Below, piece by piece: positions 1,301-10,041 of a DNA stretch of 53,333 nt. The stretch is from a bacterium (lineage in GTDB: Bacteria; Patescibacteriota; Minisyncoccia; Phycocordibacterales; UBA5272). The stretch covers positions 1 to 53,333 of the forward strand of contig JAYSUJ010000002.1 of NCBI GenBank assembly GCA_043719155.1. Direction: 5' to 3'. Below the pieces are notes generated by a model. That model was not told the DNA's origin and did not search any database. It was given only the letters and a program-made list of their open reading frames with translations. How positions within the stretch are numbered: the stretch's first letter is position 1; each line of letters starts with the position of its first letter. The position numbers were made by a program, and so were the translations under genes.

Positions 1301-1721
1301 AATTATAATTTGCAGGCTTTGAGGGATTCCGGAACTTGTGAGCTCCGGAAATTATTCATGTTTTTTGTTCACTAGTCTGAAGGGTTCGCCTTCAACTCGA
1401 TTTTCATCTCAATAAGTATATTAAGATGGAAAATTTTTCCATTTGCGCCGCCGAACCGAATCTTTTGCACGACGACTTTTGGGTTCCGTTCGAGTCCAGT
1501 AAAGCCATTGTAGTGAGGTATTACCCTAGCTACGGTTTGCTCTATCGTTTCTCCAATGTGTGTTTCAACCCACAACACCGGCCGGTGTACAGTTTGCAGA
1601 TGGGTTATGGGCGGGAAAGCGTCTGTTTGACGCATTTCACCGCAAATAATTTCCAAGCAGATTTCACTTATCATTGCCGGGGACCTCCTTCAAATCCCTC
1701 AAAGCCTACAAAATTATAATT
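1301..1721 (-). other. Stem-enclosed mini-gene cassette 1 (arms 1301-1328 and 1693-1721; hairpin 1327-1350)
   Basis: aattataatttgcaggctttgagggatt is the near-perfect reverse complement of aatccctcaaagcctacaaaattataatt. Confidence 0.85.
1372..1674 (-). CDS. Hypothetical cassette cargo protein (100 aa)
   Basis: ATG preceded by AAGGAGGT; fills the loop of cassette 1. Confidence 0.7.
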   Translation of the reverse strand: MISEICLEIICGEMRQTDAFPPITHLQTVHRPVLWVETHIGETIEQTVARVIPHYNGFTGLERNPKVVVQKIRFGGANGKIFHLNILIEMKIELKANPSD

Positions 1722-1738
1722 TCGTAACACCAGAGAAA

Positions 1739-1972
1739 CTATTTAGCTAAAACTACGTTTGAGATGTGTAGAGGGTTGGCTTTCTTTACGATAGTTCCCT
1801 TTTCACCATCTTTTTTCGCTTTAACATTTTTAGTTTTCAAGTTTATACCATCAACTAGAACTTGTTCTAGTTTTGGAAAAACTTGTAGTACTTTTCCTGT
1901 TTTACCTTTATCGGCTCCGGCTATTACTTTCACATTATCTCCTTTTTTAATCATATATTTTGGTTTGCTCAT
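1739..1972 (-). CDS. rplX: 50S ribosomal protein L24
   Basis: IKKGDNVKVIAGADKGKTGKV KOW motif, PLHISNV; ATG at 1972. Confidence 0.96.
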   Translation of the reverse strand: MSKPKYMIKKGDNVKVIAGADKGKTGKVLQVFPKLEQVLVDGINLKTKNVKAKKDGEKGTIVKKANPLHISNVVLAK

Positions 1973-1982
1973 TTTATTTTTC

Positions 1983-2401
1983 AATAATGAGTATCACCTA
2001 TTTGTTTACAATAATTACAATCTTTTTCAAGTAGCGAAGTTTTGATTTTAAACATCAAAACTTCGCTAGCACAACTTAAACTTAAAGAATACGCCGACTT
2101 ACAAAATAGAGATAGTACGGCGAGTAGAAACAGTGGAAACGGACAAATATCCCATGATTGAATGTTTTTTTCCAATCTTCGAAATATCGGTCTGCTCTCA
2201 TCTTCGCCTCTTCGTCATCCACTGCTTTGAAAATCTGCACTTTTTCAAGTGACCTTACAATGCCCAACCAATAATGCACATCAACACGCATACGTAATTC
2301 GTACAAATTAGTTGTTCCGTTAGCCATTTATATTCTCTCCTTCGGTTGTGTTGAAAAAAACTACAATTTGTTTTGTAAACAAATAGGTAACACACATTAT
2401 T
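1983..2401 (-). other. Stem-enclosed mini-gene cassette 2 (arms 1983-2030 and 2351-2401; 15-bp perfect hairpin 2032-2068)
   Basis: aataatgagtatcacctatttgtttacaa pairs with ttgtaaacaaataggtaacacacattatt. Confidence 0.85.
2082..2327 (-). CDS. Hypothetical cassette cargo protein (81 aa, FKAVDDEEA motif)
   Basis: AAGGAG SD before ATG; fills the loop of cassette 2. Confidence 0.75.
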   Translation of the reverse strand: MANGTTNLYELRMRVDVHYWLGIVRSLEKVQIFKAVDDEEAKMRADRYFEDWKKTFNHGIFVRFHCFYSPYYLYFVSRRIL

Positions 2402-2429
2402 TATTTTTAAAAGAACTATTTATTTTTAA

Positions 2430-2810
2430 TTATAGGACTTCAGGTGCTAGTGAAATAAGCTTTTGATACCCCAAACCTGCCAATTCTCTTGGTACTGGAC
2501 CAAAAATACGGTTAGCTCGAGGTTCTTTTGCTTGTTTACCTTTTCCGTTAATAATAACTACCGCGTTGTCAGAAAATGAAATGTATGAACCGTCAACTCT
2601 TCTAAAAGGTTTTTTGGTTCGCACAATCACTCCGTAAACTACGTCTTTTCTTTTTATCATCTTTCTTGGTTCAGCAACTTTAATAGACAACACTACCACG
2701 TCTCCTACATAAGCAGTTCTGTGGCGTGTACCTCCCAAAATTGTGAACACCCGACCATGCGTACCACCAGAGTTATCTGTGATAACCACGTTTGTTCCGA
2801 TTTTTATCAT
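2430..2810 (-). CDS. rplN: 50S ribosomal protein L14
   Basis: DNSGG, VGDVV, VIVRTKK, RRVDGSYISFSDNAVVII, RIFGPVPREL, ISLAPEVL. Confidence 0.98.
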   Translation of the reverse strand: MIKIGTNVVITDNSGGTHGRVFTILGGTRHRTAYVGDVVVLSIKVAEPRKMIKRKDVVYGVIVRTKKPFRRVDGSYISFSDNAVVIINGKGKQAKEPRANRIFGPVPRELAGLGYQKLISLAPEVL

Positions 2811-2846
2811 ATTTATTTTTAAATATTTACACTAGTTGCCCTCTTT

Positions 2847-2877
2847 CCTCTCCTTTGTAAGGAGAGGCTAGGTGAGG
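2847..2877. repeat. GC-rich REP-like palindrome cctctcctt-tgt-aaggagagg followed by ctaggtgagg
   Basis: Perfect 9-bp inverted repeat in an AT-rich spacer upstream of rplN. Confidence 0.55.
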
Positions 2878-7797: not shown

Positions 7798-7844
7798 TTT
7801 TGTCAAAGGAACAATTTGTTTTTTAGTTTATGAGACTTTTTGCT

Positions 7845-8507
7845 TTACGCAATTTTCTGTTCTAAGAATTTTGTCATATTTTCTACATCGACCATTACTA
7901 TGTAACGAGTGTTCATAACGTCTAATGCAGACGCCTGAGCAATTGTTTTTACGGTAACTTGTGGAATATTTCGAAACGCACGCAATAATGTTTCAGATTT
8001 TTCAGGGGTATAAATAACCATGTTCCCTGCTTTTCTGAAGGTAAGATTTTTAAAGTTCTCTACTTTTGACAAGTTTGTCAAAATAGATTCTGCTTCTTTT
8101 GTTTTTGGTTCGTTAAGAGTAATTTTGTCTACTAGTAAAATTTTACCAGAACGCAATTTGTCTGAAAGGACCATACAGAAAGCCAGACCACGAGATTTCT
8201 TGTTGATCTTTTTAGAATAATCTTTGTCCGAACGAGGACCGAAGGTAATACCACCACCACGCCAAATAGGTGAACGGATAGAGGCATGACGCGCTCTGTC
8301 CATTTCCTTTTGTGGCCAAGGCTTGATACCACCACCACGAACTTCGTTACGAGTTTTAGTATGGGCAAGTCCAGCTCTTTTGTTTGATTGTTGAGAAACG
8401 ATAACTTGGTGAACCAAGTCTTTGTTAAGCTTCAAACCAAACACAGACTCTGACAGAGTAACTTCCGCAGCTTCTTTACCTAATTGTGTATATTGTTTTG
8501 TTTTCAT
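7845..8507 (-). CDS. rplD: 50S ribosomal protein L4
   Basis: [43 protein letters not shown] 8507 (MKTKQY) preferred. Confidence 0.97.
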
Positions 8508-8533
8508 ATATTTTATTTTGCACAAAAGTATTT

Positions 8534-8942
8534 TATCAAGTACCACAATTTATTTAGAATGATTGTAAATTTTGTTAGAGGCACAAGCAATTTCATTTCT
8601 TACTTTCGCTTGTGCTAGGGTTTATTGTCTTAAACTCGAGAAGTGCTGATTGTAGTTGTTTCTACAATTTTTTGGAACTCTCCGAACTCGAGAAGTTTCG
8701 CGCCTATGTAGTTGGCACGTGCGTTTGAAATTATCTGGTTTTTATTCACAACAGCATCTTCATCAGATTCTGCTTTAAAAAAAACCATTCTTTCGTTCCA
8801 ATGTGGCTGATCACTGTCGTCATAGTTCCGCGTCGCAACTTGGTACAAGACTAAGTAAGTTTTCACTTTGCCTACTCCTTTTTTTGCTACCCCCAAGAAA
8901 ATTTACAATTTTATTTTTCTAAACAAATTGCGATACTCGATA
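8534..8942 (-). other. Stem-enclosed mini-gene cassette 6 (arms 8534-8573 and 8898-8942; hairpin 8581-8615)
   Basis: tatcaagtaccacaatttatttagaa pairs with ttctaaacaaattgcgatactcgata. Confidence 0.85.
8630..8866 (-). CDS. Hypothetical cassette cargo protein (78 aa, FFKAESDEDA motif)
   Basis: AAGGAG SD before GTG at 8866; fills the loop of cassette 6. Confidence 0.72.
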   Translation of the reverse strand: MKTYLVLYQVATRNYDDSDQPHWNERMVFFKAESDEDAVVNKNQIISNARANYIGAKLLEFGEFQKIVETTTISTSRV

Positions 8943-8968
8943 TTTACTTTTTAATGTGCTATTTCAAT

Positions 8969-9592
8969 TTAGTTAGAAACTATTTCTATTACCCCACCTG
9001 GTATACCTGGCACCGCACCCTTTACGAGCATAGTTTTAGTAACTGGGTCTATTGCTAATACTTTTAAATTTCGTACTGTTATTCTTTCTGTACCCATTCT
9101 TCCGGCCATTTTCATGCCTTTGACTACACGTCCTCCGGCACGCCCACCTCCACCGATAGATCCAGGCTCACGAAGAGCGTGATGCACATTGTGGATAGGA
9201 CCTTTACCTTTGAAACCATGTCGTTTTACAACACCTTGAAAACCTTTACCTTTAGAAATACCAGAGATAGTTACCGTGTCACCTTTTGCAAATTGGTCAA
9301 CACCTAGCACTTGTCCAACTGTAAAGCCAGTGATTTCAGCATCTGCTTTCGCAGCTCTGAACTCCATAACTTTTTGGAAAAGTCCTGCATATTGTTTTAC
9401 TTGAGGCTTGTTTACACGATGTCCTTTTTGCACTCCGTACCCTACTACCAATGCTGGATAACCATGTTTGTTCTTGTCTTTTATCTCAAGAACCGTCATT
9501 TCAGCGAATGATAAAATAGTTACTGCATGTGCCTCTGCGTTTTCATCAAAGTATTGAGTCATTCCTGACTTTTTTGCGAGCATTACTTTCAT
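8969..9592 (-). CDS. rplC: 50S ribosomal protein L3
   Basis: KSGMTQ, GISKGKGFQGVVKRHGF, REPGSIG, KGMKMAGRMG, VKGAVPG. Confidence 0.98.
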   Translation of the reverse strand: MKVMLAKKSGMTQYFDENAEAHAVTILSFAEMTVLEIKDKNKHGYPALVVGYGVQKGHRVNKPQVKQYAGLFQKVMEFRAAKADAEITGFTVGQVLGVDQFAKGDTVTISGISKGKGFQGVVKRHGFKGKGPIHNVHHALREPGSIGGGGRAGGRVVKGMKMAGRMGTERITVRNLKVLAIDPVTKTMLVKGAVPGIPGGVIEIVSN

Positions 9593-9668
9593 ATTTTTTC
9601 TTTTAAGAGGAATCTTTTTTGCATTTGAGATTCATTAACATTAATTTATTAATTTTTAAATTACTTTC

Positions 9669-10041
9669 TATCAAGTATCACATTTTGTTTATAACTTTTT
9701 ATTACAAATTATATTCTTTAAGAAGTGGGAGAGGTTCGACTCTCCCGAAGGTGTTCAGACCGACACTAGCCACGGCCAGTAGTAGCGGTAAAAAAGCCAG
9801 GTGACCAATGCACACGCAGCTAGAAAGTCAAAGAACATGACATAGTAGCCAAGAATATAGCCATATGGCCCGGACTTGAAACCTGTTAACCGCTCAGCAA
9901 TTTTAAAAAATATACTGAGACGGATAACCACAAAGGCTCCGTAGACAAAAATGATCAAGTTCATTGTTGACTCCTATTTTCCTGTTTGGTTTGCCTTCTT
10001 AAAGAATACAATTTGTTGTAAACAAAATGTGATACTCGATA
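9669..10041 (-). other. Stem-enclosed mini-gene cassette 7 (arms 9669-9725 and 9995-10041; hairpin 9727-9746)
   Basis: tatcaagtatcacattttgttta...tattctttaagaag pairs with cttcttaaagaata...taaacaaaatgtgatactcgata. Confidence 0.87.
9755..9964 (-). CDS. Hypothetical two-TM membrane cassette cargo protein (69 aa)
   Basis: AGGAG SD; two hydrophobic stretches; fills the loop of cassette 7. Confidence 0.72.
   Translation of the reverse strand: MNLIIFVYGAFVVIRLSIFFKIAERLTGFKSGPYGYILGYYVMFFDFLAACALVTWLFYRYYWPWLVSV

Follow-up and report, generated by a model that had tools for sequence, protein, structure and literature searches.

Intervening sequences (IVSs) of ribosomal RNA (rRNA) genes are the closest described counterparts of the elements reported here. 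The IVS of Coxiella is a horizontally acquired insert of 428 nucleotides (nt) that carries an S23p open reading frame (ORF) and is excised by RNase III, and in the portions of the study drawn on here that ORF is described as apparently not translated (PMC4990558). In the Candidate Phyla Radiation (CPR), short non-intron insertions occur at IVS sites of 23S genes, according to the sections cited (PMC11270868). Here we analyze a stretch of 53,333 nt from contig JAYSUJ010000002.1 (hereafter the window), which belongs to a CPR/Parcubacteria-type genome of 0.99 Mb (assembly GCA_043719155.1, G000 in our numbering; 42 contigs, 90% complete). Eight inserts lie between the genes of its S10/spc ribosomal-protein operon, each a small cassette with paired ends and an ORF preceded by a Shine-Dalgarno (SD)-like motif. 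The family to which they belong seems to represent a new form of IVS-like element, and it poses a paradox that is real and testable, namely SD-led genes in a cell that probably lacks the anti-SD sequence.

In 2022, Tsurumaki et al. found that only 48% of the 16S genes of Parcubacteria have an anti-SD motif. The parts of their paper considered here also describe an overlap between the anti-SD-less lineages and the group lacking ribosomal protein uL1, as well as a high conservation, even where the anti-SD is missing, of helix h26, which contacts the SD helix and whose role in those lineages is unknown (PMC9297842). A host that does without SD and anti-SD is already known biology for the present lineage, which is part of Parcubacteria. 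The preliminary description of this DNA had proposed checking the 16S 3′ end for the anti-SD CCUCCU, and this gave an answer for relatives, since the assembly of this genome contains no 16S gene: CCUCC is absent after helix 45 in all ten complete 16S genes read by eye (two from the same genus, six from the same family and two from other families of the order), whose tails past the last helix are A/U-rich. Likewise, uL1 was not found in this genome by a search that detected it in 14 of 14 control genomes. Judging from these relatives, the host probably starts translation without SD pairing, and because their 16S genes lack CCUCC, the cargo motif probably has no canonical partner here. CsrA was considered as a possible reader of GGA, but no gene for it was detected in the genome.

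SD sites had been noted on the cassette genes and not on the host genes, and the contrast is confirmed. An AAGGAG-type motif lies 3-10 nt 5′ of the start in all eight cargo ORFs of the window and in four more ORFs on two other contigs, whereas AGGAG occurs at positions −20 to −4 in 1.1%, and GGAGG in 0.4%, of 701 host ORFs. The eight motifs listed in the preliminary description are all present 5′ of minus-strand ORFs, and its account of A/T-only leaders holds for rplN, rpsC, tuf and recA; efp was not located. The host set comprised non-overlapping ORFs of at least 150 amino acids (aa) whose start was taken, by a simple rule and with no gene finder, as the first ATG; these starts are mostly correct, as the strong and sharply positioned A-rich/T(−1) signal shows. 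Across the 701 leaders, G makes up only 6-13% at positions −12 to −2, A accounts for about 50%, and 69% have T at −1. This genome-wide T(−1) within an A-rich leader is a strong start-context signal to which we assign no mechanism. T at −1 is found at none of the 12 cargo starts, as against 12 of 13 starts of ribosomal-protein genes and tuf, so that the cargo set is distinguished from the host set by two independent properties of the initiation region.

Calculated pairing with the canonical anti-SD separates the two sets in the same way. All 12 cargo motifs are complementary to CCUCC, at spacings of 3-10 nt and with duplex energies of −5.4 to −12.9 kcal/mol. Energies of −5 kcal/mol or lower were reached by 11/11 cargo ORFs versus 53/701 host ORFs and energies of −8 kcal/mol or lower by 6/11 versus 8/701 (Mann-Whitney p = 2.4e-8 for cargo against host energies). 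At −6 kcal/mol, 27 of the 701 host leaders (3.9%) qualify, compared with 5.6% of random genomic 19-mers, and host leaders are thus depleted in SD-like sites relative to random sequence. An SD-like cluster falls within −20 to 0 of the start in 12/12 cargo ORFs, including the twelfth, on contig C36, and roughly 46 such clusters occur in the approximately 5.2 kb of cassette sequence overall. The SD contrast between cargo and host is far beyond chance. The predicted mean unpaired probability of the motif, 0.19-0.67 across the 12 ORF-bearing copies, is uninformative on accessibility.

The operon occupies window positions 1220-10059 on the minus strand, and the gene order on that strand is tuf, rpsJ, rplC, rplD, rplW, rplB, rpsS, rplV, rpsC, rplP, rpsQ, rplN, rplX, rplE, rpsL. 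Ordinary junctions in this operon mostly measure a few to a few dozen bases, whereas 420-790 nt of extra DNA is present at seven of them: rpsJ/rplC, rplC/rplD, rplD/rplW, rplW/rplB, rpsQ/rplN (two elements), rplN/rplX and rplX/rplE. We named the window elements A, B, C, D, E1, E2, F and G. A genome-wide search for long-range stems, in which G-U pairs were allowed, revealed four more on contig C25, and another copy lies on contig C36. The genome holds 13 elements, of which ten separate ribosomal-protein genes, one interrupts the 23S rRNA gene, one is located in the 23S leader and one adjoins another cassette.

On the sense strand, the eight window elements share one plan: a 5′ arm, a short spacer, the AAGGAG-type motif, a start codon 3-10 nt further on, an ORF of 23-100 codons, a GC-rich hairpin and a complementary 3′ arm, downstream of which a fresh A-rich leader serves the next ribosomal-protein gene. 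The closing helix folds in all 13 elements. In each of them the sense strand gives the more stable fold of the two strands. The count of long-range G-U pairs is 67 for the sense and 25 for the antisense strand, an asymmetry that a DNA-level inverted repeat would not show and that points to selection at the RNA level. Among the ten copies sharing the outermost helix, RNAalifold recovered 20 pairs, ten of them kept through compensatory changes on both sides; the arms are 75-96% alike across copies, differing at 1-6 of 24 positions, and the spacers around the motif cannot be aligned between copies. Neither promoter-like sites (20 versus 22.7 expected) nor terminator-like sites (7 versus 6.6) show enrichment in the region, which makes co-transcription with their operons the simplest assumption for the elements. 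The genome also encodes RNase III (C27:11818-12213, 142 bits). An Rfam scan of window positions 1-12000 gave only two chance-level matches, both below the gathering score. We saw no conserved pairing partner for the SD-like motif; an internal CCCUC-type partner exists in some copies only, where it pairs with a separate upstream GAGGG.

One candidate interaction was considered and set aside. In some copies, the outer 5′ arm shows complementarity to the 3′ tail of the 16S rRNA from one of the same-genus relatives. This is probably a coincidence, given that the other same-genus relative differs, that 60-80 nt separate the arm from the start and that the sequence is A/T-rich.

Elements K and L lie outside the spacers between protein genes. 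Element K has the family closing helix, a GC-rich structured interior and a GGAGG stretch with no SD-led ORF, and may be a non-coding or decayed copy. Element L forms the first half of a 510-nt insertion in the 23S gene; the rest of that gene is C36:1-3201. By BLAST this insertion is absent from the 23S genes of four related genomes (G002, G006, G008 and G021), and the same-genus G003 has only a short hairpin at the position of element L; a narrow Rfam scan for placing the insertion returned no match. The second half of the insertion (about 2304-2577) is a different, uncharacterized insert, and at the site of the C36:2068-2577 insertion G003 carries another, unlike insert, about 545 nt in length.

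Table 1. Cassettes, their ORFs and the surrounding genes. Positions refer to the window unless a contig (C) or locus (L) is named.
Feature	Position	Strand	Details
rpsJ (S10)	10060..10479	-	translation; host-type A/T-only leader, T directly before ATG
Cassette A, rpsJ/rplC junction	9593..10059	-	closing-stem arms 9995-10043 and 9667-9725; GC-rich hairpin downstream of stop
Cassette A ORF	9755-9964, ATG 9964	-	69 aa, hydrophobic; AGGAG at 9971-9975, 6 nt 5′ of start
rplC (L3)	8969..9592	-	host-type leader
Cassette B, rplC/rplD junction	8508..8968	-	outer arms 8920-8943 and 8533-8556
Cassette B ORF	8630-8866, GTG start 8866	-	78 aa, no homologue; AAGGAG at 8875-8880, 8 nt 5′ of start
rplD (L4)	7845..8507	-	likely start ATG 8507
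Cassette C, rplD/rplW junction	7426..7844	-	arms 7769-7793 and 7466-7490
Cassette C ORF	7559-7732, ATG 7732	-	57 aa, one membrane-type helix; GAGAGGT at 7736-7742, 3 nt 5′ of start
rplW (L23)	7018..7425	-	translation
Cassette D, rplW/rplB junction	6582..7017	-	arms 6945-6990 and 6631-6674
Cassette D ORF	6725-6922, ATG 6922	-	65 aa; AAGGAAG at 6929-6935, 6 nt 5′ of start
rplB, rpsS, rplV, rpsC, rplP, rpsQ	3601..6581	-	close-packed, insert-free; all leaders A/T-only
Cassette E1, 3′ of rpsQ	3196..3600	-	arms 3561-3591 and 3216-3246; outermost conserved helix absent
Cassette E1 ORF	3286-3540, ATG 3540	-	84 aa; AAGGA at 3547-3551, 6 nt 5′ of start
Cassette E2, adjoining E1	2900..3195	-	arms 3141-3186 and 2941-2986
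Cassette E2 ORF	3025-3096, ATG 3096	-	23 aa, hydrophobic; AAGGAGGTGG at 3102-3111, 5 nt 5′ of start
rplN (L14)	2430..2810	-	host-type leader
Cassette F, rplN/rplX junction	1973..2429	-	arms 2373-2412 and 1972-2011
Cassette F ORF	2082-2327, ATG 2327	-	81 aa; AAGGAG at 2337-2342, 9 nt 5′ of start
rplX (L24)	1739..1972	-	translation
Cassette G, rplX/rplE junction	1220..1738	-	arms 1693-1712 and 1309-1328
Cassette G ORF	1372-1674, ATG 1674	-	100 aa, no homologue; AAGGAGGT at 1683-1690, 8 nt 5′ of start
rplE (L5)	650..1219	-	3′ of cassette G
Element H	contig C25		S8/L6 junction
Element I	contig C25		S5/L15 junction
Element J	contig C25		L10/L7-L12 (L7/L12) junction
Element K	C25:24820-25105 (locus L028:5820-6105)		about 100 nt 5′ of 23S rRNA start
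Element L	contig C36, first half of 510-nt 23S insertion (C36:2068-2577, locus L099)		34-aa hydrophobic ORF

The inserts look like recent and foreign mobile passengers. No such bracket was seen in 16 related S10/spc loci, a same-genus genome included, nor in ten 16S loci. In the same-genus G001, whose ribosomal protein L2 is 83% identical to that of the present genome, the junctions L4/L23, L23/L2, S17/L14, L14/L24 and L24/L5 measure 41, 5, 139, 11 and 94 nt and are free of cassettes. A search for the two-arm pattern matched five copies in this genome and none in 400 others, which were drawn from 224 genera of the order. In viral contigs, 59 single-arm matches were obtained, none of them with a partner arm; among the matches listed from phage and plasmid records, all were to ribosomal-protein genes or to unannotated records and none to a cassette. 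The inserts are not an assembly artefact, because independent contigs from two source runs bridge every gene-cassette junction with zero differences and at even depth. Identical cassette pieces are present at low depth in two more runs of the same study, and no contig skipping exactly one cassette was seen in the four DNA runs, all from that one study.

The cargo proteins are mutually unrelated (BLASTP, best E = 0.085). As the cargo is unrelated while the arms stay alike, the copies would seem to be separate arrivals from an outside pool and not the products of duplication in place; this contrast suggests several acquisitions of cassettes that were probably already distinct from one another on arrival. 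Composition offers a comparison with longer SD-led genes elsewhere in the genome. Eight of the 12 strongest that were examined have a G+C content of 47-55%, against 36.0 ± 4.7% for host ORFs, and for this reason look horizontally acquired; we regard them as likely recent acquisitions. Such genes lie at C38:8501-11063, C38:27903-28649, C16:19409-20362 and C34:14126-14680, and others at C36:11135-12295, C33:15213-16211 and C29:14655-15437. Some look by eye like SPFH/band-7 proteins, along with an aspartate-semialdehyde dehydrogenase.

Two anti-SD-less relatives, G017 (L014:303-845) and G029 (L025:6248-6950), also contain SD-led foreign ORFs in the S10/spc operon. These are inserted at L24/L5 and S19/L2 and are flanked by terminator-like hairpins, with no closing stem.

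Whether the cargo consists of genes is a separate question, and coding is plausible but unproven from what the ORFs display. They run in sense, fill the loop, start at SD spacing and end just 5′ of the hairpin; in nine of the 13 elements, the sense open frames exceed those of shuffled sequence (p 0.004-0.04). Four ORFs (A, C, E2 and L) encode hydrophobic peptides of 23-69 aa, while the remaining eight products look soluble. Coding conservation, whose absence the preliminary description had named as speaking against its claim, was partly wanting, since no homologue of the cargo was found anywhere searched. Pfam and PHROGs scans of 11 cargo proteins gave only sub-threshold hits, the best being DUF4288 for B (E = 0.007), and the Pfam scan matched none of the 11 to the 23S rRNA IVS protein family. 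A protein atlas search returned nothing above 0.86 and a Foldseek search against the PDB nothing at E ≤ 0.001. An impression that five of the proteins share a beta-beta-alpha-beta pattern was not supported, as a hidden Markov model (HMM) of these possibly related proteins, run against 1.84 billion representatives, found only the same five.

These observations combine into an explanation that we give an even chance of being right: the elements would be IVS-like mobile cassettes, co-transcribed and cut by RNase III, whose SD motif was inherited from an SD-using source. Having no promoter of their own, they would ride on the strongest transcription units of the cell and be transcribed with the operon. 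The ends of the sense RNA are predicted to pair as a long interrupted helix, which would fold the insert out of the operon transcript and could serve as an RNase III substrate, releasing the cassette as a mini-RNA in the manner of rRNA intervening sequences. The paired ends and the 3′ hairpin may then protect the released mini-RNA, while the A-rich stretch 3′ of the 3′ arm would again provide the next ribosomal-protein gene with a leader of the host type. The motif itself would be heritage, the cassettes stemming from a pool that evolved in SD-using cells and whose members already differed from one another; with no canonical partner in this host, cargo translation would be inefficient at best.

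Three origins had been put forward for the cargo motifs in the preliminary description: foreign descent, a need for SD to initiate within structured RNA, and excised mini-mRNAs tuned for the ribosomes of another organism. Foreign origin is the best supported of them, in view of the absence from the 16 related S10 operons and the 400 sampled genomes and of the SD-led, high-G+C genes. The structured-RNA proposal is left without a mechanism where the motif probably has no canonical partner, and the statement that the cargo uses a different initiation mode went beyond the data on the same ground, CCUCC being missing from the 16S genes of relatives. The mini-mRNA idea divides: excision is plausible, given the sense-strand stems and the RNase III gene, whereas tuning for foreign ribosomes is unsupported.

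Several points weigh against the explanation of IVS-like cassettes with an inherited motif. Neither a donor nor a sister cassette was found in genomes of the order, viral contigs, or phage and plasmid records, and the G+C content of the cargo is only mildly raised (40.0% versus 36.0%), unlike that of the clearly foreign SD-led genes. Coding is not established, because the cargo is orphan (B and G matched only themselves among 5.8 billion proteins in word-indexed searches), because AlphaFold confidence (predicted local distance difference test, pLDDT) is moderate for I (69) and poor for G (45), and because antisense frames are long, equaling the sense frames in 5/13 elements; moreover, the short ORFs A, E2 and L and element K are no longer than in shuffles. 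RNase III cleavage, excision and mobility are predictions, and the absence of the anti-SD from this organism, whose own 16S is unassembled, is read from its relatives. Above all, the motif is kept in 12/12 ORFs at correct spacing, amid spacers that cannot be aligned and stems with compensated changes, which looks more like selection than decay. Were selection acting in this host, heritage would be the wrong explanation; an intact motif in copies old enough for compensated stem changes is therefore our main doubt.

That doubt is the starting point of an alternative we consider unlikely, in which the motif functions here by being read by something other than the 16S tail, such as another rRNA or protein element in the 30S platform, or an RNA that the cassette itself produces. 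Cassettes would then bring an initiation signal of their own and be translated apart from host mRNAs. The retention of the motif at 3-10 nt from 12 of 12 starts, despite unalignable spacers and ten compensated stem pairs, argues for it, as does the high conservation of h26 in Parcubacteria even without an anti-SD, as described in the sections of the source used here (PMC9297842). No candidate reader was found, however, CsrA was not detected, and the internal CCCUC-type partner, besides occurring in some copies only, pairs with the different, upstream GAGGG. A more specific proposal, slightly less probable in our estimate, is that selection keeps SD-type signals on private, RNase III-excisable mini-mRNAs, spread across the rRNA and ribosomal-protein operons, that would use a second, cassette-specific initiation route with the h26 platform as candidate reader. 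We are as doubtful of the idea that the purine-rich motif is an architectural or processing signal of a largely non-coding RNA element whose ORFs are incidental. The orphan cargo, the antisense frames as long as sense in five of the 13 elements and the failure of ORFs A, E2 and L to outrun shuffles are all consistent with it, as is copy K, which keeps the architecture and the GGAGG stretch with no SD-led ORF, and the Coxiella IVS ORF is reported, in the part of the study cited, to be untranslated in vivo (PMC4990558). Yet the motif always stands at SD spacing from an in-frame sense start of a loop-filling ORF, sense frames beat shuffles in nine copies (p 0.004-0.04), no conserved pairing partner of the motif was seen, and no Rfam family matched.

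Another alternative is a retained anti-SD. In Bacteroidota, initiation is SD-independent and the anti-SD is masked; this organism could likewise keep a masked anti-SD, or a plain one, with SD initiation reserved as a channel for few genes. Its own 16S is missing from the assembly and a few long host genes do have a strong SD (the 8/701 at −8 kcal/mol or lower), but CCUCC is lacking in 10/10 relatives (two of the same genus), uL1 was not found, as in the published anti-SD-less group, SD-like sites in host leaders fall below the random level (3.9% versus 5.6%) and the strongest SD-led long genes are mostly of foreign composition, which together make this reading very unlikely. We regard it as highly improbable that RNAs of the cassettes leave the cell to be translated on ribosomes of a bacterium hosting this putative epibiont. 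What speaks for it is solely that the motif suits SD-using ribosomes and that paired ends would stabilize a free RNA; on the other side, there is no export signal, known RNA-delivery route or identified partner organism, the cargo has no recognizable effector features or homologues, and simpler explanations cover every observation.

Several neighboring features of the locus and window were recorded. No L29 gene lies between rplP and rpsQ (window 3868-3880), and L29 is likewise missing from the same-genus G001; rpsL follows immediately 3′ of rplE (window 605-649), and S14, S8 and the remaining spc operon are on a separate contig (C25:126-717). Just 5′ of rplN is a GC-rich palindromic repeat (window 2830-2880), and a small ORF is bracketed by the same repeat on C34:4714-5136 and by a similar one on C7:34095-34517; by eye, its product resembles a DUF559/Vsr-type endonuclease. 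Further along the minus strand, a two-gene pair (window 12046-12472) consists of a downstream gene with a HicA toxin domain (58 bits) and a 69-aa upstream partner that is HicB-like by eye, with no Pfam match. Two very large repeat proteins of 796 and 2906 aa with collagen-like Gly-X-Y tracts are encoded at 12497-23620 (minus strand), the smaller of which has a Peptidase_S74 (endosialidase chaperone) domain; G+C content is elevated, at 48-51%, between 20 and 23 kb in the window. Finally, a 236-aa ORF (window 45351-46150, minus strand) lies between inverted GC-rich hairpins about 614 nt apart; it resembles by eye a repetitive extragenic palindromic (REP)-associated tyrosine transposase, but had no Pfam match at E ≤ 0.001.

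The fate of incoming SD-led genes in anti-SD-less cells is an unpublished question, and the cassettes provide a natural test set for it, in the form of 12 small genes that bear textbook SD motifs and sit in the operons that the cell expresses most highly, while the cell itself is apparently unable to read them. Should the motifs be relics, they would record the recent movement of an element not described before, one that is IVS-like yet resides between ribosomal-protein genes, which would broaden the range of residence and tolerance of IVS-like elements. If they are maintained, some reader of SD-like signals must exist beyond those known. In both cases, the family opens a concrete way to study how uncultured CPR bacteria process mRNA and initiate translation.

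On the host side, the genome agrees with the anti-SD-less Parcubacteria subgroup, as characterized in the sections of that work considered here, in its A-rich leaders, the absence of SD, the 16S genes of its relatives without CCUCC and the failure to find uL1; SD-led gene sets inside such genomes are not described in those sections (PMC9297842). In the literature searched, we encountered neither a description of SD-led gene sets in anti-SD-less CPR genomes nor one of stem-enclosed ORF cassettes between ribosomal-protein genes.

On the cassette side, several known systems invite comparison. Integron cassettes offer an analogy only, in that conserved ends accompany variable cargo, whereas the present elements are scattered singly between essential genes. 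The mRNAs of hok-type type I toxins fold back 5′ to 3′. The four hydrophobic cargo peptides of 23-69 aa and a whole mRNA locked end to end resemble them, as a lead only, but the other eight cargo ORFs look soluble. The Correia elements of Neisseria are miniature inverted repeats, short, non-coding and near-identical between copies, which are transcribed and cleaved by RNase III. The cassettes resemble elements of this type in their terminal inverted repeats, their intergenic position within operons and their RNase III-substrate-type hairpins in mRNA (cleavage here being predicted), yet differ from them, and from miniature inverted-repeat transposable elements (MITEs) generally, in that each copy contains an unrelated ORF and that pairing is stronger in one strand (G-U pairs 67 versus 25). 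A target-site duplication was not readable against empty sites, as the flanks are A/T-rich and extend the stem; the genome has no autonomous copy with cassette ends, and no transposase was identified, although transposase families were not searched for.

The rRNA IVSs come closest. Like them, the cassettes measure a few hundred nt, reside in ribosomal operons, have ends that pair in a long helix and may contain a small ORF; a scattered occurrence among close relatives, common to both, implies horizontal spread, and two of the 13 copies lie in or beside a 23S gene. Unlike them, ten of the 13 copies lie between ribosomal-protein genes, the eight of the window in mRNA spacers, insertion into an rRNA gene holds for one copy (L), and many copies with differing cargo share a single genome. 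None of the 11 cargo proteins scanned falls into the 23S IVS protein family, and excision is here a prediction. Where the Coxiella IVS ORF has, in the portion of the report drawn on, no working ribosome-binding site (PMC4990558), the cassette ORFs have a strong SD-like motif. Because of their location in mRNA spacers, their non-IVS cargo and their strong SD motifs, we do not file the cassettes as members of the IVS family.

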